In this document: one piece after another, positions 421 through 54,469 of the stretch
Numbering within the stretch: the stretch's first letter is position 1
How the letters are laid out: every line of letters begins with the position of its first letter
NCBI GenBank assembly: GCA_002070375.1
Contig: MWDD01000001.1
Span: 17,425 to 81,424 of the forward strand
Length of the DNA stretch: 64,000 nt
Origin: a bacterium ADurb.Bin157
GTDB taxonomy: Bacteria; Muiribacteriota; Ozemobacteria; Ozemobacterales; Ozemobacteraceae
Direction of reading: 5' to 3'
Translations under genes and position numbers: made by a program
The notes under the pieces: generated by a model
What the model saw: the letters and a program-made list of their open reading frames with translations, nothing else
What the model was told of the DNA's origin: nothing
Databases searched by the model: none

Positions 421-2340
421 TTATTTATGATCTTTGCACGCAAAAACTTTATTCACGACAGCGCAGACATCGACCACTCTGATCTGGTGAAACTTAAGCA
501 TATCCGACAAACTTAATGCTGACTGTGAATAAGCTCTTGCCCCTATTCTAACGGGATTTTTAAACCCAAGCGCCCCAATAAAAGCCCCCAACCCTGTTTC
601 GCGCCGGTGGTCCTCTAAAGTAAACACATTGTTGTATTTTGCTATCAAGTTTTTCAAGACTTGATTTTCATCCGTGAATCGCTGAACTATAACCACATCT
701 AAAGCGATTCCAATGTCTTCCAGGGCTCTTTGCGACTTTAGCGCTGTTTTTGTCATGTGCGGCCCTGAAGTAAACAAAACTCCGCGTTTTACCGATTCTA
801 ATGCCGAAATGAATTTGCGACAGCCCGAATCTGCCAAAGGCGATGATATGCCTGTGTTGCAGGGCGTTCTGTGTAATCTGATATAAGTCGGTCTGCATTT
901 TCCGGTTTCGGAAAATTCCTTTCGCATCCGCTCAATAGCATAGGCCAGTAATGCTTCGGTGCTTTTTTCATCAACAGGCTCAACCATTTCAATATCACCT
1001 ATACATCGCATTAAACCAATATCATTTACCGCTTGATGGCTTTTACCGTCTGTAAAGTAATCTGCGCCCGAATAATGCGCCGCAAAAATAACAGGCACTT
1101 TTTCGGTCGCAACAGCAAAAATTTGATCAAGAGAACGCTTAAAGAAAGATGCATAAGTGTTAACAACGGCGATTTTGCCCGTCAAACCGATTCCTGCCGC
1201 AATTGAAGTCATATCTTGCTCGCTTATTCCGACTTCAATATATCTTTCATTAAAAAGACGCGCAACCTCGGTAAGTTTGCATGATTTTTCTAAATCTGCG
1301 TCTAATACAAAAATGTTCTTATCATTTGCATACTTAGCAAGAGCCGCCGTAAAAGCTTCGCCGGTAGACAAGTTTTTGTTATCGCTCTTATCATCGAACT
1401 CTTCTTGATTATCGCAGGTGTATTGTTCTTTGAATTCTTTAAACGATTGCCTCAAAGCTTTATGATCAATTTTGCCGACCAGCTCTTCAAGAATTTGTAA
1501 ATATTCGCCATCAGAAGGAATCTTACCATGCCACACACCCTCTCTTCTGGCGACATCTTTTGACATGGACGTTATTGAGCTGCCTGCGCCTTTAATGGTA
1601 TGAGCGATTATTATCGCCGGTGCGTTGCCGCTTAATACCTTTTCAATTGCACCTACAATTTCCTCAAAATTATGCCCGTCAATTTCATACACAACTAAGC
1701 CAATGCCCTCAAAGACCTTAACCCAATCAGCCGCATCTTTAATGTCTGCGGTGCAACTGTCAGACTGCAAATAATTTCTGTCTAATATGGGAACAACGCC
1801 GCGCGGGTTATGTTTTGCCAAAGTTAAAAGAGCCTCAAAGAGCTGCCCCTCCTGCATTTCGCCATCCCCCATCAGTGCAAAAACCGGCTTTATTTCTGTC
1901 GAATCAATATTGTTACTTAAAGCGTTGCCTATTGCCTTCGATAACCCCTGCCCCAGAGAACCGCTGTCAGAATCAACACCGGGAACAGACCTGTCACAAT
2001 GAGCGGGCAACCCGTCGAGTTGCTTATAAGTATTGAGCCTTTCAAGTTCGAAGCAACCCAACGCAGCCAAAATTGCATACTGCGCCATTGCTGCATGCCC
2101 CTTCGACATATGCAACGCACCTCTTTGGGTGCTTTCAATTGAAGGGTTAGGTATAAATCTGTGATAAATACTGCTCAAAATATCTATCCCGGAAAAACAA
2201 GCGCCTAACCAGCCATGAGAGGCAGACTTTAAGCCGGCAAGACAATTAATGCGATGGATATTCGCCAGTTTTTCTAATTGTCCAAAATCGTTAGAATCAA
2301 ACAAATCAATAATACTTTTATCAACAATAAATGTTTTCAT
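421..2340 (-). CDS. transketolase (single-chain, TPP-dependent)
   Basis: 639 aa. N-terminal TPP-binding motifs SKGHAAMAQYA and ALMGDGEMQEG. C-terminal pyrimidine-binding domain GISEQDMTSIAAG...NTYASF. Confidence 0.75.
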   Translation of the reverse strand: MKTFIVDKSIIDLFDSNDFGQLEKLANIHRINCLAGLKSASHGWLGACFSGIDILSSIYHRFIPNPSIESTQRGALHMSKGHAAMAQYAILAALGCFELERLNTYKQLDGLPAHCDRSVPGVDSDSGSLGQGLSKAIGNALSNNIDSTEIKPVFALMGDGEMQEGQLFEALLTLAKHNPRGVVPILDRNYLQSDSCTADIKDAADWVKVFEGIGLVVYEIDGHNFEEIVGAIEKVLSGNAPAIIIAHTIKGAGSSITSMSKDVARREGVWHGKIPSDGEYLQILEELVGKIDHKALRQSFKEFKEQYTCDNQEEFDDKSDNKNLSTGEAFTAALAKYANDKNIFVLDADLEKSCKLTEVARLFNERYIEVGISEQDMTSIAAGIGLTGKIAVVNTYASFFKRSLDQIFAVATEKVPVIFAAHYSGADYFTDGKSHQAVNDIGLMRCIGDIEMVEPVDEKSTEALLAYAIERMRKEFSETGKCRPTYIRLHRTPCNTGISSPLADSGCRKFISALESVKRGVLFTSGPHMTKTALKSQRALEDIGIALDVVIVQRFTDENQVLKNLIAKYNNVFTLEDHRRETGLGAFIGALGFKNPVRIGARAYSQSALSLSDMLKFHQIRVVDVCAVVNKVFACKDHK

Positions 2341-5748: not shown

Positions 5749-6954
5749 TTAAATATACTGAATGGTCGTTTCTTTATAATATTGCTCTTCAAGCTGTTTT
5801 GATATTTTCTTTATGACATTTCTTCTGATCTCTAAATCAACAGGCATATTTGGATCTTGGTGAAATTCATTGATTCTCGTACCTACAACGAAATTTATTA
5901 CATCGCTGTCAAGCATCAATTTTACTATCTTTGCTCCCGGGTCGTCTGTAAAGAAGTCAAGTTCGGTCTTATCTTCAAGATATTTTGCCGCTCTGCCGAT
6001 AGTTAAAATGCCTTCCGTTACCAAATCAGCGCCGTCCATTATTGATTCGGGAGGCAAATCAGCGGTTAGCTTGTCAAGCCTCACGTGAACCTTACGACCT
6101 GTTTCTCTTGAAATAATATTTGCGGTAGTGCCCCCGCATATTATTTTTTTACCGGGAAACTCCTCTACAAGCGATGCAAGCATTTTATCTTTTTGCCGAT
6201 CATATGGCGGGCCGGTCATTATTAACAAGCGTCTTGGATTTCTAAAATAAATTACACCGCAAGTAATATCATCTAAGGCTTTATGCGAATTATTTAACCA
6301 AGATTTCTCTACAATAGCCCTTGACAGATCATGAGCAGATATTTCAGGCTTTGAGGCAATTTTATCTAAAATAAATTTTCCGACCCTCTCAATGCCCCAT
6401 CCGAATGGAAGCTCTTTGCTGCCGATTCCGCTCTGACTGACACCGTCAGAAAACATTATAATGCGATCCCCAATTTTTGCGTCAAACCCCGACACATTTA
6501 TTTGCACAGGCTCTTTATCTGCTCTTAATACGTCTGCTTCTTGCTTTTGGGTATCCATAACAGAGCCATTTCTAGTAATCAAAACAGGTGGGTTATCATA
6601 CTCAACAATTCTGACTTCATTGTCAAAATCTATGTCAACCATCGAAAATGTACTGTAACTTATGTTTCTTTTAGAACATACAGGTAATGTTTCCATAATG
6701 CTCTTTGCAGCTTTGGCGGGATCTCTGAAGCTACCCATGTAGTTTAACCCCATAACAGAGGTTAAAGTGGCTAACACCCCTGCTTTAACTCCGCTTCCCA
6801 ATCCATCGGAAAGCACAGCCAACACCCGACTCTGTTCTTTAATTTTTTTAGACAAAAAAACATCGCCGCCAATTCGATTTTTTTCGCAGTATCTTTGGCA
6901 ATAATCAACTTCTATCGCACAATCAGATGTTTTCGGTGTGAACTCCATTATCAA
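5749..6954 (-). CDS. PP2C/SpoIIE-family serine phosphatase with C-terminal uncharacterised domain
   Basis: 401 aa. Has GGDVF, LSDGLGSG, MFSDGV and DDIT motifs of RsbU/SpoIIE PP2C phosphatases. Overlaps the upstream gene by 32 nt. Confidence 0.7.
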   Translation of the reverse strand: MIMEFTPKTSDCAIEVDYCQRYCEKNRIGGDVFLSKKIKEQSRVLAVLSDGLGSGVKAGVLATLTSVMGLNYMGSFRDPAKAAKSIMETLPVCSKRNISYSTFSMVDIDFDNEVRIVEYDNPPVLITRNGSVMDTQKQEADVLRADKEPVQINVSGFDAKIGDRIIMFSDGVSQSGIGSKELPFGWGIERVGKFILDKIASKPEISAHDLSRAIVEKSWLNNSHKALDDITCGVIYFRNPRRLLIMTGPPYDRQKDKMLASLVEEFPGKKIICGGTTANIISRETGRKVHVRLDKLTADLPPESIMDGADLVTEGILTIGRAAKYLEDKTELDFFTDDPGAKIVKLMLDSDVINFVVGTRINEFHQDPNMPVDLEIRRNVIKKISKQLEEQYYKETTIQYI

Positions 6955-8665
6955 CCTCCGCTGTTTCTTTAAAGGCCTCTAATACATTGTTCAAACGAAT
7001 TTCAGTTTCAGAAGCATTCTCTCCCAGCAAATAAGCTATCTTTTGAACAGTCTCCAAATTTAGTTTAATTACTTCTTCAACTCTTTTGACTACTTGCTCC
7101 CTTCTGACATGAGGCACTCTTATATCTTGAATTACAGCGCCGACTACCTGATTTCTTTCAATTGAAAAAACAGAAATATTTAATCTGTGATTGTTGTAAT
7201 CCATCTCGGAATCAACCAAATCTTCACCCGTCACCAAAACTTTTTGAAAAAGCTTATAGAACGGAACAATTTTATTCAGCATAGCACCTTCCAACCCCGG
7301 GGTTGCTTCAAAAATCATTTCTATTTCTGAGCCGAAAATAGAAGCAAAATGCTTGTTGCACTCAATAATTCGCATCGCAGAATCGGCAATTACAACTCCC
7401 GCAGGCATTGCCTTTATTAAAGCGTTTGCTTTTTTACTGGCTAATTTTCGCATATAAGAAGCGCACATGTTTTCCATCGCTTTTCCGTTTAAGAGAGCTA
7501 CTGCAAAATCTCGACACGAATCATAACCGCAACTGCCACAGTTCAACTCGTCTTTCAACGAGCTTTTACCAACCCTTTGCAAAGCGCTCCTGATCATCGG
7601 TTCAGAATAAACTCCCGAAATTATCGGCTTTATTTGAATTTCTGCACCAATGTTTATGCCATATAGGGGCTTGTCAAAATCAATCGTGTTTACAACATTG
7701 CTGTAAACATTATCCCGTTTAAGAACCGTAGACTCTTTATGTCTCATGCCGGGACCATTAACGCATCCTCCGCCACAAGCCAAAAGTTCGATAAAAATCT
7801 GTCTGTTTGGCGAAAATTTATCCAGATCTCCCATTGCCGCAATTATGGCTTTTATACCGGAAAAACACATAAACTCCACATTTTGCTTTTGCAAACGCCC
7901 CTTTATACCCGAAATCATTCCGCCGTCAATGGGATATAAACCCCCGTCTGAGGAATCAAAAGGATAAAATGTTTCTGAGCTGTCAGGATCTAATGCATAT
8001 GGATCAATATTTGACTCTTCAAACCACTTATGAAGATTTTCAAATGTCAAAGCAGCTAAAATATTTTCGTTAAATAAGTCAAATTCAATTTTCTTTGCAG
8101 CGCAAGGCCCAACAAAAGCAAATTGTGTATTAGGTGCCGATATGCTCGCTAAGTATTTAACATGAGCTGCCAGCGGTGAAACCAACGGCGTAAAGTACGC
8201 AACAAACTTTGGATAATACTTGTACATCATTTCAACTACTGTAGGACAAGCCGTCGAAAGAAATATTTTGTTATCTGAACTGTCAATCAAATCAGCTACC
8301 CCTTTTGAAACCATCTGAGCGCCGATAGCTGTTTCTGAAACTTGAGAAAAACCCAACTTTTTAATAGCTGATATAAGCTGCGATGAATGTAATTGAACAA
8401 ATTCAGCCCGCCACGAAGGAGCAACAGAAAGAATGACATTTCTTCCCATGTCTATAGCCTGTCGCACTTTTGCAACATCATTACGTATTTTTTTTGCGCC
8501 TGATGGACAAACCAAAACACATTTTCCGCAATGAATACACAGCTCATCAACAATACAAGCGCTGTTGTCTTCAATTTTTATTGCCTTAACAGGACACTCT
8601 CTGACGCATTTATAGCAATCTTGGCAATCTGCTTTTTTTGTGTATATAGGCTTTAACTCATTCAT
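6923..8665 (-). CDS. hydS: sensory [FeFe]-hydrogenase-like protein HydS (H-domain, extra Cys cluster, C-terminal PAS)
   Basis: 580 aa. N-terminal 2x[4Fe-4S] ferredoxin motifs. H-cluster motifs STACPTVV (proton-relay Cys to Ala), FVGPCAAKKIE (Met to Gly) and ELLACGGGCVNGPG. Then CGSCGYDSC and a PAS-like C-terminus. Confidence 0.75.
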   Translation of the reverse strand: MNELKPIYTKKADCQDCYKCVRECPVKAIKIEDNSACIVDELCIHCGKCVLVCPSGAKKIRNDVAKVRQAIDMGRNVILSVAPSWRAEFVQLHSSQLISAIKKLGFSQVSETAIGAQMVSKGVADLIDSSDNKIFLSTACPTVVEMMYKYYPKFVAYFTPLVSPLAAHVKYLASISAPNTQFAFVGPCAAKKIEFDLFNENILAALTFENLHKWFEESNIDPYALDPDSSETFYPFDSSDGGLYPIDGGMISGIKGRLQKQNVEFMCFSGIKAIIAAMGDLDKFSPNRQIFIELLACGGGCVNGPGMRHKESTVLKRDNVYSNVVNTIDFDKPLYGINIGAEIQIKPIISGVYSEPMIRSALQRVGKSSLKDELNCGSCGYDSCRDFAVALLNGKAMENMCASYMRKLASKKANALIKAMPAGVVIADSAMRIIECNKHFASIFGSEIEMIFEATPGLEGAMLNKIVPFYKLFQKVLVTGEDLVDSEMDYNNHRLNISVFSIERNQVVGAVIQDIRVPHVRREQVVKRVEEVIKLNLETVQKIAYLLGENASETEIRLNNVLEAFKETAEVDNGVHTENI

Positions 8666-9001: not shown

Positions 9002-9019
9002 TTGTGAAAAAATTCACAA
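9002..9019 (-). promoter_or_regulatory. Rex (redox-sensing repressor) operator TTGTGAA-AAAA-TTCACAA
   Basis: Perfect 18-bp match to the published Rex consensus TTGTGAAnnnnTTCACAA. Its left half serves as the -35 (TTGTGA), 17 nt from a TATAAT -10 at 8996..8991, about 45 nt upstream of the first ferredoxin ATG. Confidence 0.6.
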
Positions 9020-13115: not shown

Positions 13116-14489
13116 TTAATCCTTATTTTCTTGTTCATCCTTATTTTCTTGATCTTCCTCTTTATTTAAGTCGTTTTTCTTTTTGACGCTCATCTTGAAA
13201 CCAAGGGTAAGAAAAACAAAAGATACAATAATAAACAAAAATGCCAACATTGTCTTACTTATGCTTCTTTTTAAATAAATTACACCGTCACAAATCATTA
13301 TCACAACGTCATAAACGCTGTTAAAAAGGACCTTAAACAGCTTAGCGGCGGCCTCAATAATTTTAACGAAAAACATGTATATTTTTTCAAACCAAAGAGC
13401 CGCAGATTCAAGAATTTTTTCGATAGTCTGAACTAAAGAACCCCCAACATCTTTAACATCTTTAACAAAAAGCTCTAAGCTACCCGATATAAGATTGCCA
13501 AAACTTAAAACAACCGAGATTCCAAATACAGTCAAACCCACCTTATTTTTGCGAGTAAACCAAATCGCAGATGATAAAACAAATAAAAACACAGAATTGA
13601 TGAACTGGGCGCTAAAAGACACATGAGGTCTGAAAAATATTATTAAAAATGAAGTAATAAGAACTGTGTTATCAATTTTTTCCTCATATTTCTCAAACAA
13701 ATCGATCCACATGCTTTTACAAAAATACACACTGCACAGCACCCAAGGCAAGACAACTGTTTCTACAGGCACCTCAGGCATCATAATTCTATAAGAATCC
13801 ATTACATTCAGAAAAATTTGTATCGGCAAAAGAAAAAATACAAAAATCATGCCCCAACGCCATATTCGGGTTTCATCACCTAAATAGGGATTGTTTATTG
13901 TCTCATGAATCTCGGCTTTGCCCCAATTCTCAACAATGAACGGAACTTGTATCAACGCTGCAGCAAGCCAAATATAATAAATTATAGGTATTTCATACAC
14001 ATACTTAAAGTTTATTGAATCAAGAATTAAATAGGTTAGCTTTGGGGAAATCCATACCAATAAAAATGAAGATAACAAAAAAAGAATTCTGCTCTTATAA
14101 ACCTTAAGATTTAACACTTTAATTACCGCCACAAACTTAATAAGCGCAAGCAGAATATACAGTAAAGTAGCACCCCAACCGATTAAAGTACTTAATGAAG
14201 AAATTCTTACCTGATAAAAGGTTATATCACCCATTAAAATAAGTCCAAAAGCAAGCAGCATTTTGCCATGTTCATTCTGAATCTTGTTTTTCAACAGGTA
14301 AATTGCCATGCCAACAACAATTAGTTCATAAACATTTTGTATGGCAAATATACTTAAAATAGCACTGACAGAAACTTCGGACGGATTATCAATGGTCGTG
14401 CCCGCCAAATATAACCCTAATAGCATAAAAAGAACGCTGATCAGATATAATGGATTGTTTTTTTCTAACCACTCTTGTAATGTTTTCAT
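13116..14489 (-). CDS. polytopic membrane protein, unknown function, acidic repetitive C-terminus
   Basis: 457 aa, about 10 hydrophobic segments. C-terminal KEEDQENKDEQENKD repeat is encoded by the direct DNA repeat tccttattttcttg x2 at 13120-13160. Confidence 0.5.
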   Translation of the reverse strand: MKTLQEWLEKNNPLYLISVLFMLLGLYLAGTTIDNPSEVSVSAILSIFAIQNVYELIVVGMAIYLLKNKIQNEHGKMLLAFGLILMGDITFYQVRISSLSTLIGWGATLLYILLALIKFVAVIKVLNLKVYKSRILFLLSSFLLVWISPKLTYLILDSINFKYVYEIPIIYYIWLAAALIQVPFIVENWGKAEIHETINNPYLGDETRIWRWGMIFVFFLLPIQIFLNVMDSYRIMMPEVPVETVVLPWVLCSVYFCKSMWIDLFEKYEEKIDNTVLITSFLIIFFRPHVSFSAQFINSVFLFVLSSAIWFTRKNKVGLTVFGISVVLSFGNLISGSLELFVKDVKDVGGSLVQTIEKILESAALWFEKIYMFFVKIIEAAAKLFKVLFNSVYDVVIMICDGVIYLKRSISKTMLAFLFIIVSFVFLTLGFKMSVKKKNDLNKEEDQENKDEQENKD

Positions 14490-14634: not shown

Positions 14635-16515
14635 TTAGCGCAATGAAGACAAAAAGAGCTTAATTCTTGACACTATTCCATTGGTATCCAAGCCGACTAA
14701 TTTATTCAGTTCGCTTACTGAGGCGTGCTCGATAAAATTGTCAGGAATGCCGATTCGACAAACAGGAATATTTGCCCCAAAGTCTGCAATCTTTTCTGAA
14801 ACCATGCTGCCAAAACCACCCGCCAATACGTTATCTTCAACAGTAATAACCGGCATAGAATCATTGATTACATTTTTTAATTCGTTATCATCAAACGGTT
14901 TTACAAATCTTGGGTTTATGAGCTTTACGGAAATTCCTTCGTCAAAGAGAATTTTTGCCGCCTCAAAACTGTTTTTAATTGTATTACCCAATGCAAAAAC
15001 GGCTACATCTTTACCGTCAATTAATACTTCCGACTTGCCCTTAAATAAGGGTGAGTGATCTTTTTGATCTGTTATTTTCTCAAACACTTTACCTCTCGGA
15101 TACCTTATAATCACCGGCGAAAGGCTCTCGGAGGCATACTCAAGCATATCACGAAACTCTGACTCATCGCCGGGAGCAAGAATTTCAATTCCGGGTATTG
15201 TTCTAAAAACAGAAACATCAAAAACGCCATGGTGAGTTGAGCCGTCTTCCCCTACTAAACCGGCTCTGTCAAGACAAAATACAACCGGCAAATTCATAAG
15301 TGCGACATCATGAAAAACCTGATCATACGCCCGTTGCATAAAAGTGGAATATATTGCGACAAAAGGCTTCAATCCGGATTTTGCCATTCCGCCGGCCATT
15401 GTAACCGCATGTTGTTCAGCTATTCCGACATCAAAGAATCTGTTCGGGAATTCTTTTCCAAATGCTGTTAGGCCTGTCCCTTCTTCCATGGCAGCCGTAA
15501 TTGCAACTATCTTTTTATTTTTTCGGGCCATTTCGCAGATTTTATCGCCAAATACAGATGTAAAAGTTTTTTTGTTAAGTTCATCGGAACAGATTACATT
15601 GCCCGTGTCAATTTCAAATGGGCCGACTCCGTGGAATTTATTAGAGTGGCACTCTGCCGGTTCGTATCCTTTTCCTTTTTGAGTAAGCACATGAACTATA
15701 GCCGGGCCGTTTCGATCTTTGGCTCTTTGAAGAGCTCTTTCCAAAACATCAAAATCATAGCCGTTTACAGGGCCAAAGTATTTAAAGCCCAATTCTTCGA
15801 AAAGCATACCGGGCGTAAGTAAATACTTAAAGCTTCCTTCTATTCGGCTCAATATATTATATAAACGGGTTCCAAAACCGGGAATTTGCTTAAGAACGTA
15901 AGCTAAATAATCCTTGGGGGTTGTAAACGCCGGCTCTAAGCGCAGCCGGTGCAAATACATGGCAACAGCACCGACATTTGCCGAAATCGACATCTCATTG
16001 TCATTTAATATTACAACTAAATTGCTCTTTTTATGACCGGCGTAATTTAGCGCTTCAAAGGCCATTCCCCCGGTTAAAGCCCCATCTCCTATGACTGCAA
16101 CGGTTTTTCCGGGCAAATTTAATGTCTCACGGGCAATTTGAATGCCTTGTGCCGCTGAAATTGAAGTTGAACTATGCCCCGTATTAAAAACGTCAAATTT
16201 ACTTTCCGATATCTTGGGAAACCCGCTTATGCCGTCTTTTTTTCTTAAAGTATCAAATACTGCATTGCGACCGGTAATTATTTTATGAGTATAAGACTGA
16301 TGACCTACGTCCCAGACTATATTGTCGGTAGGAGCATGAAAAACACGATGTATTGCGAGAGTTAACTCAATAACACCAAGATTACTGGCTAAATGGCCAC
16401 CGTTTTTAGAAACCACATCAATAATTCTCTTACGAATTTCATCGCTTAAAATTTTAAGCTCTTCGAGAGAAAGATTTTTTAAATCATGTGGTGAATTTAT
16501 ATTTTCGAGTAACAT
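14635..16515 (-). CDS. dxs: 1-deoxy-D-xylulose-5-phosphate synthase
   Basis: 626 aa. GGHLASNLGVIELT...DVGHQSY, GDGALTGGMAFEALN (TPP motif), full-length match to DXS architecture. Confidence 0.9.
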   Translation of the reverse strand: MLLENINSPHDLKNLSLEELKILSDEIRKRIIDVVSKNGGHLASNLGVIELTLAIHRVFHAPTDNIVWDVGHQSYTHKIITGRNAVFDTLRKKDGISGFPKISESKFDVFNTGHSSTSISAAQGIQIARETLNLPGKTVAVIGDGALTGGMAFEALNYAGHKKSNLVVILNDNEMSISANVGAVAMYLHRLRLEPAFTTPKDYLAYVLKQIPGFGTRLYNILSRIEGSFKYLLTPGMLFEELGFKYFGPVNGYDFDVLERALQRAKDRNGPAIVHVLTQKGKGYEPAECHSNKFHGVGPFEIDTGNVICSDELNKKTFTSVFGDKICEMARKNKKIVAITAAMEEGTGLTAFGKEFPNRFFDVGIAEQHAVTMAGGMAKSGLKPFVAIYSTFMQRAYDQVFHDVALMNLPVVFCLDRAGLVGEDGSTHHGVFDVSVFRTIPGIEILAPGDESEFRDMLEYASESLSPVIIRYPRGKVFEKITDQKDHSPLFKGKSEVLIDGKDVAVFALGNTIKNSFEAAKILFDEGISVKLINPRFVKPFDDNELKNVINDSMPVITVEDNVLAGGFGSMVSEKIADFGANIPVCRIGIPDNFIEHASVSELNKLVGLDTNGIVSRIKLFLSSLR

Positions 16516-16550
16516 GGTAGGCTAGGATTATATCACATAAAAAATTAAAA

Positions 16551-17741
16551 TCAAATTTTTGATGGGTCTTTTTCAAGATACTTATCGGCTGTAAAATCAA
16601 TCAAAAAAGCCCCTATCGGCGCCGTAACAACTATTGAAAGCACCGCCATCGCTAACACAGAGCTCCCGCATCGCAAACCCATTGCCGACGGAACACCTCC
16701 TATCGCTGCTTGTACTGTAGCCTTTGGAATCTCCGCAAACATACAAAATATTTTCTCTTTAAGGTTTAAGGGAGTTTTCACAAGACACAAAAACATGCCA
16801 AATAGTCTGAATATCAAACCAATCATCAACAGTAAAAGCATCATAAATCCCGAAGCAATAATCTGCTTAAAATCGACAAACGCACCAACAAGAACAAACA
16901 AAAGTATTTCTGCAAACACCCACATTTTACCGAATTTTAAAGAGATGCGCCCCGCTAAAACGGGGTAAAATTCGTATATTGCTATCGCCAAACCCATTAC
17001 AGCCAATAAACCTGACATCGGCAAGGATCCTTCGAGCGCTGACTCCAGAGTAACCATAAAAAAAGACAACGAAAGAATAATAACTACTTTTACAGTATCT
17101 CGCATATGAAAAGCTTTAAAAAACCTTACCAAAGTATAACCTAGAATAATTCCAAGAATAATACCCGTAACTATCGAAACCGGAATTTTAGACAAACTAC
17201 CGAGTCCGAATTCACCGCCGCTTGCCAGAGAGAGCATAGAAGTAAAAACCACTATAACAAAAACATCGTCGGCAGATGAGCCCGCTATAAGCATTTGAGG
17301 AATTCTGCGATTTGTGCCGCGACCCTCTTCAATAAGACGTGTCATTTTAGGAATTACGACCGCCGGCGAAACAGCAGCAATTACAGCACCCATTATGCCT
17401 GCCTCTATAAGGTTTATCCCTAATAAATAAGGAGCAAAAATCAGGTAAGAAGCAATCTCAAACAAAGCCGGCAAAAAGCTCATTAAAATGGCAGGACGAC
17501 CAACTTTTTTCAAATCTTGTATATCAAGCGAAAGACCCGCTTTGGTAAGAATGATGATTAAGGCAATTTTACGTAAATCATCAGAAATAAGCAGAATATT
17601 CACATCTAATAAGTTCAAAACATGAGGTCCTAATAAACCACCGCTTAAAAGCATACCGATTATATACGGTAACCCGATTCTTGAAAGCAAATACCCTGCA
17701 ATTAAACCGCTAATCATTATCAAAGCAACGCTCAAAAGCAT
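16551..17741 (-). CDS. cation:proton antiporter (CPA1/NhaP-type Na+/H+ exchanger)
   Basis: 396 aa, 11-12 TM helices, Kef/NhaP-like N-terminus. AAGGAG ribosome-binding site. Immediately downstream of the fluoride riboswitch. Confidence 0.7.
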   Translation of the reverse strand: MLLSVALIMISGLIAGYLLSRIGLPYIIGMLLSGGLLGPHVLNLLDVNILLISDDLRKIALIIILTKAGLSLDIQDLKKVGRPAILMSFLPALFEIASYLIFAPYLLGINLIEAGIMGAVIAAVSPAVVIPKMTRLIEEGRGTNRRIPQMLIAGSSADDVFVIVVFTSMLSLASGGEFGLGSLSKIPVSIVTGIILGIILGYTLVRFFKAFHMRDTVKVVIILSLSFFMVTLESALEGSLPMSGLLAVMGLAIAIYEFYPVLAGRISLKFGKMWVFAEILLFVLVGAFVDFKQIIASGFMMLLLLMIGLIFRLFGMFLCLVKTPLNLKEKIFCMFAEIPKATVQAAIGGVPSAMGLRCGSSVLAMAVLSIVVTAPIGAFLIDFTADKYLEKDPSKI

Positions 17742-17761
17742 ATAAGCTCCTTATCTATTGC

Positions 17762-17852
17762 TAAAAAAAACTGATGACTTCTGCATAATACAGAAGTCAT
17801 CAGCTGTTATTAGCGGTTTAGGCAAGCCAAGGGAGCACTTCATTCCCTTAAA
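17762..17852 (-). promoter_or_regulatory. fluoride riboswitch (crcB RNA motif) with expression-platform intrinsic terminator
   Basis: Minus-strand RNA reads AAGGGAAUGAAGUGCUCCCUUGGCUUGCCUAAACCGCUAAUAACAGCUGAUGACUUCUG. P1 stem GGGA/UCCC; loop GAAGU is complementary to the 3' ACUUC (pseudoknot); AAACCGC junction; small P3 stem; conserved CUGAUGAcuUCU tail. The tail forms the 5' arm of a perfect 13-bp hairpin (CUGAUGACUUCUG/CAGAAGUCAUCAG) followed by U8. Confidence 0.7.
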
Positions 17853-18054
17853 GTGAGACTATCATAACCGCATAAACAAGTCAATTTTTTTACCTGAAAC
17901 GAAATTTTTAAAGAAAACAAAAATAACAATAGAAATATAAATGAAACACAACAAAATGGTATAAAATATAACAAAGCAAAATGAAAAAAATCAAATGAGA
18001 GAAAATCCTCAAAAGCAAAGGATACAAAATTAAATAAAAAACCCATTAAAAAGT

Positions 18055-18072
18055 TTGTGAAAAATTTCACTT
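18055..18072 (+). promoter_or_regulatory. Rex-like operator 1 upstream of adhE (TTGTGAA-AAAT-TTCACTT)
   Basis: 16 of 18 match to TTGTGAAnnnnTTCACAA, about 105 nt upstream of the adhE ATG. Confidence 0.5.
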
Positions 18073-18087
18073 GCATTGTTAAAAAGT

Positions 18088-18105
18088 TTGTGATATATTT
18101 CACAT
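18088..18105 (+). promoter_or_regulatory. Rex-like operator 2 upstream of adhE (TTGTGAT-ATAT-TTCACAT)
   Basis: Near-consensus palindrome 7 nt upstream of a TATAAA -10-like hexamer at 18113-18118. Confidence 0.5.
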
Positions 18106-18174
18106 AATTAAGTATAAATGTTTTAAATTTTTTGTTTTGCTTCCACATATCTGAACTTCAGAAAGGATCATAAA

Positions 18175-20760
18175 ATGACGGTTAACAATCTTGAAACATT
18201 AAAAAGCACAATCGAAAAAGTTCGCGCGGCACAGAAAATTTTTTCAAATTATTCACAAGAACAGGTTGATGAAATATTTCGACAAGCCGCTATGGCTGCC
18301 AACAATAACAGAATTAAACTTGCTAAAGCCGCTTATGAAGAAACAGGTATGGGAATTGTTGAAGATAAAGTTATAAAAAATCACTTTGCTTCAGAATATA
18401 TTTATAATCAATACAAAGACGATAAAACCTGTGGGGTAATCGAATACGACAAATCATTCGGCATTACTAAAATAGCCGAGCCGATAGGTGTAATTGCCGC
18501 TGTCGTCCCAACAACAAACCCGACATCCACTGCAATCTTTAAAGCGTTATTAACTTTAAAAACCCGAAACGGGATCATTTTTTCTCCTCATCCAAGAGCG
18601 AAAAACTGCACAATCGAAGCCGCCCGAATAGTATATCAGGCAGCTCTTAAAGCCGGAGCGCCCGAGAACATAATTGCCTGGATAGATGAGCCAAGTGTTG
18701 AACTGTCTCAAAGTGTGATGCGCGAAACGGATTTAACTTTAGCAACGGGCGGTCCGGGAATGGTAAAAGCAGCTTATTCATCAGGCAAACCGGCTATCGG
18801 AGTCGGAGCCGGTAATACACCGGCAATAATTGATGAAACAGCACACATTAAAATGGCTGTAAACTCAATTTTACTTTCAAAAAGTTTTGATAATGGAGTC
18901 ATTTGCGCATCTGAACAATCGGTAATCGTTTTAGATGAAATATATGATTCCGTCAGAGACGAATTCATTGCCAGAGGAGCATATGTTTTAAAAGAAGATG
19001 AAATTGACTCTGTAAGACAAATAATTTTAATCAATGGAAAACTTAACGCAAACATCGTTGGGCAGAGTGCTGCGAAAATAGCAGAAATGGCAGGGATACA
19101 AGTTTCCCAAGATACTAAAATTTTAATTGGAGAAGTGGACTCAGTCGAATTGTCTGAACCTTTTGCACACGAGAAACTTTCCCCTGTGCTTGCTATGTAT
19201 AGAGCTCAATCTTTTGATGAAGCCGTAAATATGGCTGAAACTTTGGTTGAGCATGGCGGGTTTGGGCACACATCTGTTCTTTACACCGACCAAAACACCT
19301 CTAAAGATCGAATAGCACAGTTTAGCGCAAGAATGAAAACAGGGCGCGTAATTTTGAATATGCCTTCTTCACAAGGTGCTATCGGCGACATTTACAATTT
19401 CAAACTGGCTCCTTCGTTAACATTAGGGTGCGGATCGTGGGGAGGAAACAGTATTTCTGAGAATGTGGGGGTTAAACATTTGCTCAATATAAAGACGGTA
19501 GCAGAAAGAAGAGAAAATATGTTGTGGTTCAGAGTGCCTGAAAGAGTATATTTCAAATACGGGTGCTTAAGCATTGCCATTGATGAATTAAAGGATTTGG
19601 GCAAGAAACGTGCTTTCATTGTAACCGACAAATTCTTATTCGATAAAGGATTTGTAGATAAAATTACGCATGTTTTAGAAAGCAACGGAATAGATATTAA
19701 AATTTTCACGGGAGTTGAACCTGACCCGACTTTAGCTGTTGCAAGACGAGGTGTCCAGGAAATGATTTCATTTGAGCCTGACACAATAATTGCATTAGGT
19801 GGCGGCTCACCCATGGATGCTGCGAAAATTATGTGGGTAATGTATGAACATCCTGAAGTAAGATTTGAAGATTTGGCAATGCGATTTATGGATATCAGAA
19901 AACGTGTTTATAAGTTTCCGACGTTAGGTAAAAAAGCCATGATGGTTGCTATACCGACTTCAGCCGGTACCGGTTCTGAAGTAACCCCATTTGCGGTTAT
20001 AACCGATGAAACAACCGGTGTCAAATACCCATTAGCAGATTATGAGCTGACTCCTGATATGGCTATTATAGATGCAGAGCTTATGTCAGATATGCCAAAA
20101 GGTCTTACAGCAGCGTCAGGCATAGATGCTTTGGTTCATGCCATTGAAGCTTACGTATCTGTTTTGGCATCTGAGTTTTCAAACGGAATGGCTCTTGAAG
20201 CCATTAGGCTTGTTTTTAAATATTTACCTCAGGCTTATTCAGAAGGCAGTGCAAACTTCAAAGCGCGAGAAAAAATGGCACATGCTGCGTCAATGGCCGG
20301 AATGGCGTTTGCGAATGCATTCTTAGGAGTCTGCCACTCCATGGCTCATAAACTGGGTGCTCATCATCACCTTCCACACGGGCTGGCAAATGCACTTTTA
20401 ATAAATGAAGTTATTAAGTTTAACGCTGTTGACAACCCGCGCAAACAAACAGCATTCCCTCAATACAAATATCCGAATGCACAATGGAGATATGCAAGAA
20501 TAGCTGATTATTTAAGACTTGGTGGAAACACCGATGAAGAAAAAGTAGACCTCTTAATCGAAGCTATTAATAAATTAAAAAATGTGGTTAATATACCATC
20601 AAGCATCAAAGATGCAGGAATTTCTGAAGTTAAATTCTTTGCCGGGTTAGATGAAATGAGTGAAGAAGCATTTGACGATCAATGCACCGGGGCAAACCCC
20701 AGATATCCGCTGATAAGCGAAATCAAACAAATGTATATAAATGCATTTGAAGGTAAATAG
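18175..20760 (+). CDS. adhE: bifunctional acetaldehyde-CoA / alcohol dehydrogenase AdhE
   Basis: 861 aa. N-terminal aldehyde dehydrogenase domain and C-terminal Fe-ADH domain (GGGSPMDAAK, HxxxH metal site). GAAAGGA ribosome-binding site. Confidence 0.95.
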   Translation: MTVNNLETLKSTIEKVRAAQKIFSNYSQEQVDEIFRQAAMAANNNRIKLAKAAYEETGMGIVEDKVIKNHFASEYIYNQYKDDKTCGVIEYDKSFGITKIAEPIGVIAAVVPTTNPTSTAIFKALLTLKTRNGIIFSPHPRAKNCTIEAARIVYQAALKAGAPENIIAWIDEPSVELSQSVMRETDLTLATGGPGMVKAAYSSGKPAIGVGAGNTPAIIDETAHIKMAVNSILLSKSFDNGVICASEQSVIVLDEIYDSVRDEFIARGAYVLKEDEIDSVRQIILINGKLNANIVGQSAAKIAEMAGIQVSQDTKILIGEVDSVELSEPFAHEKLSPVLAMYRAQSFDEAVNMAETLVEHGGFGHTSVLYTDQNTSKDRIAQFSARMKTGRVILNMPSSQGAIGDIYNFKLAPSLTLGCGSWGGNSISENVGVKHLLNIKTVAERRENMLWFRVPERVYFKYGCLSIAIDELKDLGKKRAFIVTDKFLFDKGFVDKITHVLESNGIDIKIFTGVEPDPTLAVARRGVQEMISFEPDTIIALGGGSPMDAAKIMWVMYEHPEVRFEDLAMRFMDIRKRVYKFPTLGKKAMMVAIPTSAGTGSEVTPFAVITDETTGVKYPLADYELTPDMAIIDAELMSDMPKGLTAASGIDALVHAIEAYVSVLASEFSNGMALEAIRLVFKYLPQAYSEGSANFKAREKMAHAASMAGMAFANAFLGVCHSMAHKLGAHHHLPHGLANALLINEVIKFNAVDNPRKQTAFPQYKYPNAQWRYARIADYLRLGGNTDEEKVDLLIEAINKLKNVVNIPSSIKDAGISEVKFFAGLDEMSEEAFDDQCTGANPRYPLISEIKQMYINAFEGK

Positions 20761-20787: not shown

Positions 20788-21468
20788 TCATCGGTCGGAC
20801 TCACTTTCGAGACCGGCCGATTTTTTATCTAATATCATATTTATCTTGCTGTATATGCCATTAATTTCATCGATTGCTTCATGCCCCGAGCATCTGCGAA
20901 ATTTGTCGCCCGTTAAATTTGCATTTAATACGGCGTTTATCTCTTCATAAGGATAAATTATGTCTTTTAGGAAAACTCTTTTATAATACATTCCCAAGAA
21001 AAACATTCCGGCGGCCCAAAATACGACAAACCACGAACCGGCAACAGCAAACTTTTTACTTACTTTGTCAGCTGTATTAATCGCCTTTCTGTTTATCTCT
21101 GATAATGAACTGATTTTTTCTACCGTTTTCTCTAAAGCTTCGATATCACCGTTCAAAGCATATTTATAGTAGACTCTTATTTGTTCAATCAACTCACCCT
21201 CATTTTCCTCAGTTATATTTTCAGAAGCCATTTCTAAAAGTTTTTCAAAATCATTGCTTGTGTTATTATTTTCATCTTTGAAATTGCTAACTTTAATCAG
21301 CAGAACAAACATTTTTTCGCAAATTCCAATAGAGCGGTCATTTTTATGTATTATATTTTGAACGGCAGGCGCCATTCTTGAAAGAGACCAAATGCAAGCG
21401 ATAGCCATGAGCAAATTTAAAAAAATGAAAAATGTCATTCTGATTCTTACGGTCTGAGCAATAACCAT
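20788..21468 (-). CDS. two-TM membrane protein of unknown function, co-transcribed with ktrAB
   Basis: 226 aa. TM at about 10-30 and about 137-160 with a roughly 105-aa loop between. Start codon is 1 nt after the ktrA stop. Confidence 0.5.
   Translation of the reverse strand: MVIAQTVRIRMTFFIFLNLLMAIACIWSLSRMAPAVQNIIHKNDRSIGICEKMFVLLIKVSNFKDENNNTSNDFEKLLEMASENITEENEGELIEQIRVYYKYALNGDIEALEKTVEKISSLSEINRKAINTADKVSKKFAVAGSWFVVFWAAGMFFLGMYYKRVFLKDIIYPYEEINAVLNANLTGDKFRRCSGHEAIDEINGIYSKINMILDKKSAGLESESDR
20790..20826 (+). terminator. rho-independent terminator downstream of adhE (likely bidirectional)
   Basis: ATCGGTCGG-N14-CCGGCCGAT hairpin followed by TTTTTT. Overlaps the 3' end of the convergent membrane-protein ORF. 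Confidence 0.6.
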
Positions 21469-47124: not shown

Positions 47125-49716
47125 TTAAAGCCTTGCATCTATAATCGTTTTTAGTTTACCGGTACGACTGTTTCGGGTTATTTTTCCAGGTTTGTACCAT
47201 TCAATAGCAACAGTCATCCAGCCTTCATGCAAAGACTCGGCGATCTTATAAGACTCGTTTTTGAGTGCCTCTAACACAGCAACGTCAGAAACGGGTTTTT
47301 CAGCTTCAAGTCTGAGACAAAGCCGGTCTTTGCCTTCAAAGGTCTGAGCTTCAATCTGGAAAGACTGGCTGACAGGCAGCTTAGCAAGCCCTGCAGCCAC
47401 ATCAGCGGGCATAAGATTTATGCCCCCGATTACGATGAGTTCATCACATCGGCCCAGCAACTCAAACGATTTGCCTTTAAACCCGCACTTGCATGGTTCC
47501 GAGACAATCCATCGCCCCATGTCTCCGGTTTTATACCTAATTACAGGCATCAGTGTTTTATTCAAATTAGTTACAACTATTTCGCCCGCCTCATTAATTT
47601 CAGCCTGTTTACCGGTAATCGGCGAAATTATTTCACAGTAGCAATACTGGTCCAATACGTGGTGAATTGTGCCTGAAAGATGTTCGCACTGCCAACCTAC
47701 CGGCCCTGTATCAACGCAAGCATAGCCGGCAGAACGAATAATTTTTGCCCCTACAGTTTCTTTTAAAAACTTGCAGGTTTCAGGTCTTAGATGTTCACCG
47801 CCATATAATATTTTTTCGATCTTTATGTCCGATTTAAGTCGTTTAATTTCTTCCGCAAGTTTAATAATTATTGAAGGAAGCCCAACTACAGCATTCACAT
47901 CAAAAATTTTCAAATATTTCAAAGTGTTGCTTAAGTCAGAAGAACCGCCTACCGGCAAATTTAAGCATCCGAGATTCTCTAATGCTCTTCCGGCAACGTT
48001 AAAGCTTGTCCACAGATTGCCCGCAATAAACAAATTGGCAACTCTGTCAAATTTTGATAAACCGGCATTTCTGTAGATATCAGTCAGTAAATCTGTTACA
48101 TATTTGTATTCATCATTTGAATAGAAAGAAAATTTTGGGTTTCCGGTGGTTCCGCCCGAAGCGTATACATAAGCGTCAATTGGCTCTCTTGTTAATATAT
48201 CATTAGATTCGGGGGGTGAATTTTTGTAAAAGGTTTCTCTGTCAAGCAAAGGGAGTTTTTCAAAATTTTCAAATCCGCACCCGCCGGCCTTTTCAATAAT
48301 TGAGTTGTAATAAACAGAAGAATTAATTTGTGAAAGCAACTTTTCCACTCTGCTTTCGGGGGTATCTCTGTATTCAAGGGCAACCATATCTACTAAGCGT
48401 CTAAGCATAAATTCGCCCTCGTGAGGCGCTCCGTCGTGTCCTTCACTCATTCCGCCAATTTCGGTTACTCTTTTTGCTCCCAGTTCAAACAATTCGTCTT
48501 CAAGCCGAGCAAAACACTCAGGATATGCGCAAACACCTACTGTTTGCAAATATGATGACAAAGGCTTAACTTGAACAATTAAATCTTCTATCGAAGAAAT
48601 TCTTTTAATAAACAAAGTTCTGTTAAGGCATGAGACTTTAAACACGGGGTCATATTCAAGCACAAGCGTAAAACTGAAATCTTCCGGGCACTCAAGCCTT
48701 CCTTCGCCTTTAGCCTGCGACATTGTAGCCAGCTCGCGAACTTTTCTGATTTCTACTTTTTCATCGAAAGTTAAATTTCCCGCCGGCAAATCTTCGCTAA
48801 GCTTCAATAGCTCATCATAAAGATATTCCATCAACAAATGCGACGTTTTAATATCTTTGTCTAAAACATACACAACATGGGGCGAAGAGCAAGCCTGTTG
48901 ATCCCAGCGTGCCACATCCAATGCCAGTGAAGCGGCAATCTGAGGGGCAGTCGAAACCTTAATCTTTCGCCCTTCAATTACAGCAAAAGAAAATCTCGGG
49001 CCGTTTTCAACCAGCCTTGCAGCATCTCCCAATCTTGATTTAAGCGATTTCAAGGCCTCATACCCGCCCCAGAAAACAATAGTTGCAGGGGAATTAAGTA
49101 TCGGGTTCTCTATGCTTTCATCGCCGCCCTTCCACGAAATCGCCGCCTGATTGGGCCAAATAATACCGGCCGGGTCGTGCTCTTTTATGCTTTCTATGAA
49201 CAAAACAGGAAAAACCGTGTCTACACGAGACATTTTAAGAATATTTACATTTTTTGTGATTATACCTGATACAAGGCTATCCACAGCTCCGACAAAAACA
49301 TTGCCGGCAGTAAGATGCACTAAAACCCCACGGCTCTTGGCTTTGAGCTTGTAGCCCAAATGAGGCTGTTCTTCGCCCTCGTCAAATAATCGCAAAGAAT
49401 TAAACTCACCTTTAAGGCGTTTTTCCAGATTTTTTCTTGCGCAAATTTGACTTACCACATCAAACCCGGCGTCAGTCATTTCGGGGCTGAAATCTGTAAG
49501 TTTGGGCATAACCTCGGCCGCTTCAACCCTTAAGTGATAATTCGGATCTGCCCAAGCCGCAGAAACATTATCAAGAATATCAAGAATGCAGTCTATATCG
49601 GGGGTCGCCGCAATAGCAGCTCTCTCAAATGCTTCAGAAAGTATATCGGATATATTTTCTGAAGAAACAAATTCAGATTTGACAAATTTTCCAAAAACAC
49701 AGCATTTATTTTTCAT
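47125..49716 (-). CDS. fusion protein: LuxC-like acyl-CoA/acyl-protein reductase (N-terminal) plus PaaK/LuxE-like adenylate-forming domain (C-terminal)
   Basis: 863 aa. N-terminal aldehyde-dehydrogenase-like LuxC fold (about 1-450). C-terminal ASGGTTGNPKF adenylation motif and a PaaK-like body. Confidence 0.65.
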   Translation of the reverse strand: MKNKCCVFGKFVKSEFVSSENISDILSEAFERAAIAATPDIDCILDILDNVSAAWADPNYHLRVEAAEVMPKLTDFSPEMTDAGFDVVSQICARKNLEKRLKGEFNSLRLFDEGEEQPHLGYKLKAKSRGVLVHLTAGNVFVGAVDSLVSGIITKNVNILKMSRVDTVFPVLFIESIKEHDPAGIIWPNQAAISWKGGDESIENPILNSPATIVFWGGYEALKSLKSRLGDAARLVENGPRFSFAVIEGRKIKVSTAPQIAASLALDVARWDQQACSSPHVVYVLDKDIKTSHLLMEYLYDELLKLSEDLPAGNLTFDEKVEIRKVRELATMSQAKGEGRLECPEDFSFTLVLEYDPVFKVSCLNRTLFIKRISSIEDLIVQVKPLSSYLQTVGVCAYPECFARLEDELFELGAKRVTEIGGMSEGHDGAPHEGEFMLRRLVDMVALEYRDTPESRVEKLLSQINSSVYYNSIIEKAGGCGFENFEKLPLLDRETFYKNSPPESNDILTREPIDAYVYASGGTTGNPKFSFYSNDEYKYVTDLLTDIYRNAGLSKFDRVANLFIAGNLWTSFNVAGRALENLGCLNLPVGGSSDLSNTLKYLKIFDVNAVVGLPSIIIKLAEEIKRLKSDIKIEKILYGGEHLRPETCKFLKETVGAKIIRSAGYACVDTGPVGWQCEHLSGTIHHVLDQYCYCEIISPITGKQAEINEAGEIVVTNLNKTLMPVIRYKTGDMGRWIVSEPCKCGFKGKSFELLGRCDELIVIGGINLMPADVAAGLAKLPVSQSFQIEAQTFEGKDRLCLRLEAEKPVSDVAVLEALKNESYKIAESLHEGWMTVAIEWYKPGKITRNSRTGKLKTIIDARL

Positions 49717-53135: not shown

Positions 53136-53251
53136 ACTTTTAAAACTCGCTTCCAATGCGGATTTAAGATTATTTAATGGAATGGCGCAACGCAGTCTGC
53201 AACGATGCGCTACGTTGCAACAAGACGTCTGTCGGTGGTATAATCCCGTAA

Positions 53252-54469
53252 ATGAAAAAATACGACACAATTGTAATAGGTGCGGGTCCCTCAGGCATTA
53301 TGGCAGCGATCACCGCAACAAAGAACAACAAAAAATGTTTACTGATTGAACGCAACAGTTACGTCGGCGCAAAAATTTTAGCCAGCGGCGGCGGACGATG
53401 CAACTTAAGCAACACATTACCGACCGAAGCTTTCGTAAGTATGTTTAGCCGCGAAGGCAAGTTCATGTTAAGCAGCTTAAAAACATTCGGAAGCAAAGAA
53501 TTAACGGAATTTCTGGCCTCTGTCGGCGTTAAATGCCACGCTCCCGACGGGTTCAGGATTTTTCCCACAACCCACGATTCTAAAACCGTTGTAAACGCTT
53601 TAACCCAAGAGTTACAGCGTTTGAACACCGACATTCTTATGTCTCATCGGGTTACTGAAATAAACAACCGTAACGGCAGCTGGGAAATAGATAACGCTTA
53701 TTTTTGCAACAAACTGATTATTGCCACCGGCGGTCTTGGTTTTATGCACTTGGGGACCGAAGGCGACGGCTACAAATTCGCGACCGCAACCGGGCACAAA
53801 ATTACGAAGCTTTTTCCGGCAATGCTGCCGATTGAGACAAAAGAAACCTGGGTTAAAAACTGCCGCGCGGACACTATCGGCAAAGCGGTCGTTCAGATTA
53901 ACCTGCCAAAACACTGCAATAAAAAGGCTGTCGGAGATTTAATTTTCACATCGACAGGCATCAGGGGGCCTGTCGTATTAGATTTTGCGCGAGAAATAAC
54001 GCCTTTAATCGATGAATACGGCGAGGTTCCTTTGCTGATCAATTTGGTTGGCGGGCTGAACGAAGAACAAATAAGAGCTAAAATTAAAAGTTTGCCGCAA
54101 AACAAAATTTCCCTGCCGCTGCCCGAGATGTTAAACACATTGGTGCCGGAACCGCTTTGCGTAGAATTATGCAAATTAGTCGGGATCGATTTTTCTTGCA
54201 CTATCAGTAAAGTTGAAAAGATAAAAAGAGACAAACTGATAAAATTACTCGCAAAGACCCCTCTTACCGCAATAAGCTGCGGAGGGTTCAAAGAAGCCAT
54301 GGTTACGAGGGGCGGAGTGAGTCTTAAAGACATCAATTGCCAAACCTTAGAAAGCAAAATAAGTAAAAATTTATATTTTTGCGGCGAGGTATTAGACCTA
54401 GACGGGCCGTGCGGGGGATATAACCTTCAATGGGCATTCACGAGCGGATTTATAGCAGGATCAAATTAA
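53252..54469 (+). CDS. HI0933/YhiN-family FAD-dependent oxidoreductase
   Basis: 405 aa. IVIGAGPSGIMAA dinucleotide-binding motif, GGGRCN. Consensus -35/-10 (TTGCAA-18-TATAAT) ends 7 nt before the ATG, so the mRNA is probably leaderless. Confidence 0.75.
   Translation: MKKYDTIVIGAGPSGIMAAITATKNNKKCLLIERNSYVGAKILASGGGRCNLSNTLPTEAFVSMFSREGKFMLSSLKTFGSKELTEFLASVGVKCHAPDGFRIFPTTHDSKTVVNALTQELQRLNTDILMSHRVTEINNRNGSWEIDNAYFCNKLIIATGGLGFMHLGTEGDGYKFATATGHKITKLFPAMLPIETKETWVKNCRADTIGKAVVQINLPKHCNKKAVGDLIFTSTGIRGPVVLDFAREITPLIDEYGEVPLLINLVGGLNEEQIRAKIKSLPQNKISLPLPEMLNTLVPEPLCVELCKLVGIDFSCTISKVEKIKRDKLIKLLAKTPLTAISCGGFKEAMVTRGGVSLKDINCQTLESKISKNLYFCGEVLDLDGPCGGYNLQWAFTSGFIAGSN

Follow-up and report, generated by a model that had tools for sequence, protein, structure and literature searches.

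The archetype of the fluoride riboswitch family RF01734 is the crcB riboswitch of Bacillus cereus (PMC8752731, PMC8004769), which combines a P1 and a P3 helix with a pseudoknot between a loop and the 3′ tail. In the published model of this class, terminators overlap the motif and the ligand raises expression (PMC2864571). According to PMC11139923, Na+/H+ antiporters are the second commonest gene class associated with fluoride riboswitches, after exporters, and their presence is interpreted there as a response to acidification driven by HF. An instance from Clostridioides difficile, CD0656-7, has a fluoride riboswitch that precedes a gene whose annotation reads 'NhaP-type Na+/H+ or K+/H+ antiporter' (PMC11477304).

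Here, we describe a locus of this kind in the metagenome-assembled genome (MAG) ADurb.Bin157 (Ozemobacteraceae). It lies in a stretch of 64 kb which we analysed as a whole and refer to as the window. The switch type and the cargo class are known, and the locus adds a new instance from the candidate phylum Riflebacteria. Very probably, the region constitutes a complete and self-contained fluoride-response unit, made up of a riboswitch and an NHA2-like antiporter, next to an independently expressed dxs gene (Table 1). A first-pass annotation made from the letters of this DNA had proposed a fluoride riboswitch controlling an antiporter of the NhaP type and possibly also dxs, and had recommended a search with the Rfam model; below, we report what became of these proposals.

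Table 1. Coordinates of the riboswitch, antiporter and dxs features in the window
Feature	Position	Strand	Details
Predicted sigma70-type promoter	17856..17884	-	-35 TTGACT 17884..17879, 17-nt spacer, extended -10 TGaTAGTCT
Riboswitch -10 parts	TG 17864..17863; hexamer 17861..17856	-	
Fluoride riboswitch aptamer	17784..17856	-	extent of the RF01734 match
P1	G17847-A17844 with U17834-C17831	-	read from sequence
Pseudoknot	GAAGU 17841..17837 with ACUUC 17797..17793	-	P1 loop to 3′ tail
Extra hairpin GG-CUUG-CC	17821..17828	-	between P1 and the AAACCGC junction
Junction UAAACCGC	17820..17813	-	UAAACC part, 17820..17815
P3	17814..17812 with 17805..17803	-	
Aptamer tail CUGAUGACUUCUG	17803..17791	-	
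Intrinsic terminator	17763..17805	-	5′ arm CUGAUGACUUCUG 17803..17791, the aptamer tail
Terminator parts	7-nt loop 17790..17784; 3′ arm 17783..17771; U8 17770..17763	-	
Shine-Dalgarno AAGGAG	17747..17752	-	5 nt before the antiporter ATG, outside the terminator
Cation/proton antiporter gene	16551..17741	-	396 aa; PF00999 Na_H_Exchanger 130.9 bits; ATG at 17741, stop codon 16553..16551
Predicted dxs promoter	16527..16554	-	TTGATT 16554..16549, 16-nt spacer, perfect extended -10 TGaTATAAT
dxs -10 parts	TG 16535..16534; hexamer 16532..16527	-	
dxs (1-deoxy-D-xylulose-5-phosphate synthase)	14635..16515	-	626 aa; TIGR00204 792.7 bits; ATG at 16515

The search with Rfam indeed returned RF01734, and no other family reached threshold in the whole 64 kb. 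The match covers model positions 1-64; its 42.1 bits (E 2.8e-8) exceed the gathering score of 34. The match score is modest because of a 9-nt insertion in the Rfam alignment, which represents an extra hairpin that is not part of the Rfam consensus; with a covariance model specific to the family described below, the window aptamer scores 81.2 bits. The features of the crcB motif that had been read by eye, namely P1, the GAAGU/ACUUC pseudoknot, the AAACCGC junction and the tail, were all found in place. That is, the leader contains both the AAACCGC junction and the GCUGAUGACUUCU tail, it keeps the conserved RF01734 core of GGGAAUG, AAACCGC and GCUGAUGAC, and it shows the combination by which the crcB motif is recognized, P1 and P3 together with the conserved AAACCGC and GCUGAUGA nucleotides. 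Relative to the Rfam consensus GGAGU/ACUCC, the window pseudoknot carries one compensatory change, from G-C to A-U. Downstream of the -10 box the full leader reads AAGGGAAUGAAGUGCUCCCUUGGCUUGCCUAAACCGCUAAUAACAGCUGAUGACUUCUGUAUUAUGCAGAAGUCAUCAGUUUUUUUU, followed by AAGGAG and the ATG of the antiporter gene, and it folds with a minimum free energy (MFE) of -42 kcal/mol (z = -5.06 versus dinucleotide shuffles). An ORF of 102 aa (17840..18148, minus strand) that overlaps the promoter and the aptamer has no family match and was treated as spurious, and opposite-strand matches of the custom model, for example at window positions 17716..17790 (+), were ignored as echoes of the palindromic terminator.

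The antiporter is a member of a large family that is well conserved. Relatives of the antiporter locus were collected by a scan of one genome per species, which yielded more than 585 of them, and the best 80 loci were kept together with 4-kb flanks. These 80 loci are from other species, including members of the Bacillota, Bacteroidota and Spirochaetota. Rfam, applied to the first 20 loci, placed RF01734 immediately upstream of the antiporter in 18 of them, and from these matches we built the family covariance model with which aptamers were called at E < 1e-3. Of the 80 species-level loci (best 80 of >585), 67 have an aptamer directly in front of the antiporter. The aptamer is present, too, in two near-identical metagenomic relatives of the window, L001 and L002, as it is in the window itself. 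The remaining 13 loci (L014, L017, L022, L024, L028, L033, L039, L053, L054, L062, L066, L076 and L077) gave no RF01734 match at the gathering score within the 4 kb searched upstream; L014 and L028 have tail fragments only.

Covariation was counted on the 66 strongest aptamer matches. Standard pairs fill 94.9% of the cells, versus 36-69% in controls whose partner columns are shifted by 1-3 positions, and 9 of the 16 pairs show changes on both sides; the observed values were reached in none of 500 shuffles. Among 64 distinct related sequences, P1 is 98.0% and P3 97.3% paired, each with a compensatory pair. The pseudoknot, which was left out of the model that produced the covariation alignment, is nevertheless 97.5% paired. 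Three of its five pairs have changed on both sides in relatives, bearing out the earlier statement that GAAGU/ACUUC covaries, and the variants include GAGGC/GCUUC, GGAAC/GUUCC, GGAGU/ACUCC and GAUGC/GCGUC. The extra hairpin is common to most antiporter-linked aptamers (alignment of L004-L082), and all four of its tested pairs covary. In addition, RNAalifold, run on an unfitted MAFFT alignment, predicts the pseudoknot helix, P3 and the extra hairpin. Every helix of the aptamer is backed by covariation.

The riboswitch is preceded by a predicted promoter whose -10 hexamer, TAGTCT, is a poor match to the consensus (3/6) and depends on the TG extension; its boxes are kept in L001 and L002. Of the related loci, 63 gave a good promoter match, and 45 of these have 7-12 nt between the end of the -10 box and the first G of P1; in the window this gap is 8 nt. 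Given this spacing, transcription is predicted to start at the foot of P1, at about A17849.

At the other end of the leader, aptamer and terminator share nucleotides. The first-pass annotation had described a perfect 13-bp terminator with the aptamer tail as its 5′ arm, and this is present, together with a run of eight U residues. The 3′ strand of the pseudoknot falls within its 5′ arm. The stem has 13 perfect pairs, a count that rises to 17 when G-U and inner pairs are included, and is extendable by A17805-U and G17804-U; the hairpin has a dG of -23.6 kcal/mol. To survey this arrangement in related leaders, an exact-stem search proved blind to bulges, finding terminators in 41 of 69, and ViennaRNA folding was used instead. 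In all 70 leaders (the window plus 69 others), folding of the region after P3 gave a U-tailed hairpin whose 5′ arm is the aptamer tail AGCUGAUGACUUCUG, with stabilities ranging from -9.7 to -37 kcal/mol. The transcriptional ON-switch design suggested at the outset is thus supported by the same design in 70 of 70 leaders, and it matches the class model of PMC2864571. Translational control was considered and rejected: the Shine-Dalgarno sequence (AAGGAG:anti-SD duplex, -7.4 kcal/mol) is located outside the terminator, which argues that control is transcriptional, and its sole pairing in the MFE fold is with nucleotides that precede the predicted start of transcription. Because 67 of the 80 loci share the aptamer, all with a terminator overlapping the tail, and because covariation is seen in every helix, we consider the leader, on its sequence, a standard ON switch that acts on transcription and has a known class of cargo and predict that it responds to fluoride.

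As to the cargo, the first-pass annotation had called it an NhaP-type antiporter of the CPA1 group, and this assignment had to be revised. CPA1/NhaP proteins carry ND at the ion-binding motif, CPA2/NHA-type proteins DD. In 16 of 16 members of the antiporter family we found an invariant SADDV motif (D158-D159), and the lysine of PKATVQAA (K340) is likewise invariant. When a family profile was compared with all PDB sequences, NHA2/SLC9B2 (7b4l), by sequence the nearest relative of known structure, scored 188.5 bits (E 1.6e-54, residues 3-392), while the same profile gave 39.7 bits for MjNhaP1, 38.8 for NapA and 29.1 for PaNhaP. The window protein alone scores 138.8 bits with NHA2 versus 20.5 with PaNhaP. 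SADDV aligns with SFDDI of NHA2, and the PKATVQAAIG segment is identical in both. A CPA1/NhaP-type identity therefore fails, on an invariant DD instead of ND and on 20-40 bits to NhaP and NapA versus 139-188 bits to NHA2, and the DD motif together with the NHA2 scores makes the antiporter an NHA2/SLC9B-like protein of the CPA2 type, with transport activity predicted. The 'NhaP-type' label is a generic database name, and one JGI annotation within the family does read 'solute carrier family 9B'. The protein itself is identical to OQB50908.1 (bacterium ADurb.Bin157), publicly annotated as 'potassium/proton antiporter'; other window proteins are identical to OQB50907.1 and OQB50914.1.

The further claim that the antiporter belongs to the known fluoride-riboswitch cargoes other than CrcB agrees with PMC11139923. 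What changes is its identity: the 'NhaP-type' antiporters linked to these riboswitches do not belong to the CPA1 group but are bacterial homologues of the mammalian NHA2/SLC9B2. By aptamer count (67 of the 80 species sampled), this NHA2-like clade is mostly fluoride-gated, and it offers a well-defined target for asking what the second commonest cargo of fluoride riboswitches does. In the literature searched, we found nothing relevant that links NHA2 to fluoride and no description of the transport function of the riboswitch-linked clade.

Antiporter and dxs differ in their nearest relatives. Identity of the antiporter is 90-98% within the lineage and then about 62%, where the named matches are Lachnospiraceae and other Clostridia; matches at 57-59% identity include Sphaerochaeta, Pleomorphochaeta and Bacteroidales. 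The nearest relatives of dxs, at 57-70% identity, are all Riflebacteria. In addition, the window aptamer is of the insert-hairpin type, the dominant one among loci from Clostridia. With an antiporter whose nearest outside relatives are clostridial, a dxs that tracks the phylum and an aptamer resembling those of Clostridia, these comparisons suggest that riboswitch and antiporter were transferred horizontally into the Riflebacteria lineage as one unit. A compositional test for transfer gave no signal, the GC content of the cassette (0.395) being equal to that of the window (0.395), and composition hence lends no support to a recent transfer; the antiporter has a GC3 of 0.35 and dxs one of 0.344.

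The start codon of dxs follows the antiporter stop codon on the same strand after exactly 35 nt, as the first-pass annotation had noted. No terminator-like site was found in this 35-nt gap, so that read-through into dxs is physically possible. dxs has no Shine-Dalgarno sequence (anti-SD duplex of only -2.1 kcal/mol), which is uninformative as an argument against translation from read-through transcripts because about half of the genes in the window are without a strong one (22 of 48 have it). The gap also accommodates a predicted promoter that scores 10/12 plus the TG extension, from which dxs transcription is predicted to start at about 16520, leaving a leader of only about 5 nt. L001 and L002 share both boxes unchanged, the spacer showing one change versus several substitutions in the adjacent coding sequence, and the sister Riflebacteria loci L085 and L086 have TGnTATACT just upstream of dxs.

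How far can these observations be read differently? With a Rfam score only 8 bits above threshold, one might suspect a chance likeness or a decayed, non-functional relic, but this has next to no probability given the E value of the match and the 81 bits obtained with the family-specific model; moreover, promoter, aptamer, terminator, Shine-Dalgarno sequence and start codon are all intact and are kept in L001 and L002. Hardly more probable is a variant of the fluoride class with changed ligand or tuning, which would sense something nearer to cation/proton exchange. Such a variant could explain why most antiporter-linked aptamers have the insert hairpin and a subclass-specific pseudoknot sequence; yet the core nucleotides of RF01734 are kept, the insertion does not push the score below the gathering threshold, and in L058, L003 and L031 antiporters of the same family follow aptamers of canonical length that lack the extra hairpin. 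The occurrence of both forms in front of one antiporter family indicates a single ligand for both. The extra hairpin thus looks like a peripheral decoration in the linker that leaves the ligand unchanged, and it may tune folding or affinity.

The alternative that deserves more weight, improbable as we consider it, is a two-gene operon of antiporter and dxs, in which a fluoride-induced rise of dxs would have been selected as part of how this lineage responds to fluoride. Strand, spacing and the lack of a terminator-like hairpin between the genes fit an operon, and so does the persistence of the adjacency in L001, L002 and six or more MAGs that belong to a single cluster (at least 90% identity), as judged by consecutive accession numbers; the AU-rich gap could moreover allow initiation independent of a Shine-Dalgarno sequence. 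The adjacency is, however, confined to that cluster. By tblastn, L001 and L002 were alone in having dxs downstream of the antiporter (98% dxs identity), each of the 80 other genomes lacking it at that place, and four of four sister Riflebacteria dxs loci have neither antiporter nor aptamer, dxs there following a DUF1858 or pilin-like gene. In the 80 other genomes the antiporter usually stands alone: 33 loci continue with a convergent gene, 14 lack any ORF of 90 aa or more that begins within 400 nt, and 31 have a same-strand ORF next, at a distance of up to 60 nt in only 9 of them. Such close same-strand neighbours are heterogeneous (Usp, PCC, GCAxxG, MerR-methyltransferase, pseudouridine synthase, MCP, sigma factor) and never dxs. 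The conserved near-consensus extended -10 promoter predicted in the gap likewise speaks against an operon. As the enzyme of the first step of the MEP isoprenoid pathway, dxs should need to be expressed without fluoride. In the literature searched, we found no paper connecting a fluoride riboswitch with DXP synthase. The suggestion that dxs might be under fluoride control thus holds as far as strand, the 35-nt distance and the open path between the genes are concerned, and is countered by a predicted promoter of its own and an adjacency restricted to one lineage. Gene adjacency alone does not place dxs in a fluoride regulon; dxs is probably not under deliberate fluoride control, with incidental fluoride-dependent read-through being possible. 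A bolder reading, which we hold to be unlikely, would see in the insert-hairpin aptamer and the NHA2-like antiporter a mobile fluoride-defence cassette with a fluoride-specific transporter, and would expect dxs to be measurably inducible by fluoride, with the coupling retained by selection. The transporter role in this reading draws on about 84% of the clade, in several phyla, being fluoride-gated.

Returning to the self-contained unit with an independent dxs, which we favor, we envisage the following course of events. The sigma70-type promoter would start transcription about 2 nt before P1, and the first ~55 nt of the RNA would fold into a crcB-motif aptamer with P1, the extra hairpin, P3 and the pseudoknot between P1 loop and 3′ tail. 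Fluoride, bound as a Mg2+-F- cluster, would stabilize the pseudoknot and hold the tail CUGAUGACUUCUG inside the aptamer; being then unavailable as the 5′ arm of the 13-bp terminator, the tail would let RNA polymerase read through into the antiporter gene. When fluoride is lacking, the far more stable terminator hairpin would form and transcription would stop at the U8 tract. The NHA2/SLC9B-like antiporter would presumably offset the cytoplasmic acidification or ion imbalance that results from HF influx. The cassette would now sit in front of a native dxs which keeps its own strong predicted promoter and, with this promoter in the 35-nt gap, would be expressed independently. Under fluoride, riboswitch read-through may add a transcript that contains dxs, as a by-product of position and not as a designed regulon.

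Several other features of the window and of the related loci are recorded here in their own right. Extended -10 elements close to start codons recur: TGaTATAAT ends 11 nt before the dxs ATG (16516..16535, minus strand), TGgTATAAT ends 7 nt before the ATG at 53252 of an HI0933-like flavoprotein gene (53235..53254, plus strand), and the dxs of L083 has TAATAT 7 nt before its ATG. Such positions suggest leaderless or near-leaderless mRNAs in the Riflebacteria genome. Divergent from the riboswitch unit lies adhE (18175..20760, plus strand), with two tandem palindromes resembling Rex operators, TGTGA-N6-TCAC[TA], 70-120 nt upstream (18056..18071 and 18089..18104, plus strand); L001 has two similar boxes. 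A third is found at 9003..9018, upstream of an Fe-hydrogenase-like gene (6923..8665, minus strand). With 3 boxes found versus 1.34 expected in the window, their number is not significant; their positions would fit redox control of adhE and the hydrogenase by Rex. A protein of 863 aa (47125..49716, minus strand) shows an unusual architecture, a LuxC-type acyl-CoA reductase fused to an AMP-binding (adenylating) domain. Two ORFs are without Pfam or NCBIfam match: one of 457 aa directly downstream of dxs (13116..14489, minus strand), conserved in L002, and one of 226 aa beside the TrkA and TrkH genes (20788..21468, minus strand), conserved in L001. In the related loci, Rfam identified a group II intron domain (L033, 692..769, plus strand), a pemK RNA (L030, 3397..3454, minus strand) and, shortly after the antiporter in L020, a 6S RNA (1899..2076, minus strand).

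Set against the described systems, the window riboswitch has the same P1, P3 and loop-to-tail pseudoknot as the B. cereus crcB riboswitch and the same ON logic, with the 3′ pseudoknot strand doubling as the 5′ arm of the terminator. It differs by the added covarying hairpin, by GAAGU/ACUUC in place of GGAGU/ACUCC, and by its cargo, an antiporter instead of the Fluc/CrcB channel. The C. difficile locus shares the combination of fluoride riboswitch and antiporter; there, the antiporter comes second, after a CLC-F exporter, whereas it comes first, and is usually the only cargo, in the window as well as in the majority of the 67 loci. With the NhaP-type CPA1 proteins (MjNhaP1, 4czb; PaNhaP, 4cz8) the window antiporter has the PF00999 superfamily and the fold class in common, at only 20-40 bits and with DD in its family where those proteins carry ND. 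To mammalian NHA2/SLC9B2 (PDB 7b4l, 7p1i), in contrast, homology extends over the full length (query 3-392 versus NHA2 116-520, 188.5 bits), with the DD ion-binding motif aligned and an identical LPKATVQAAIG segment; the bacterial protein lacks the N-terminal extension of ~115 residues found in NHA2, and it stands behind a fluoride riboswitch.
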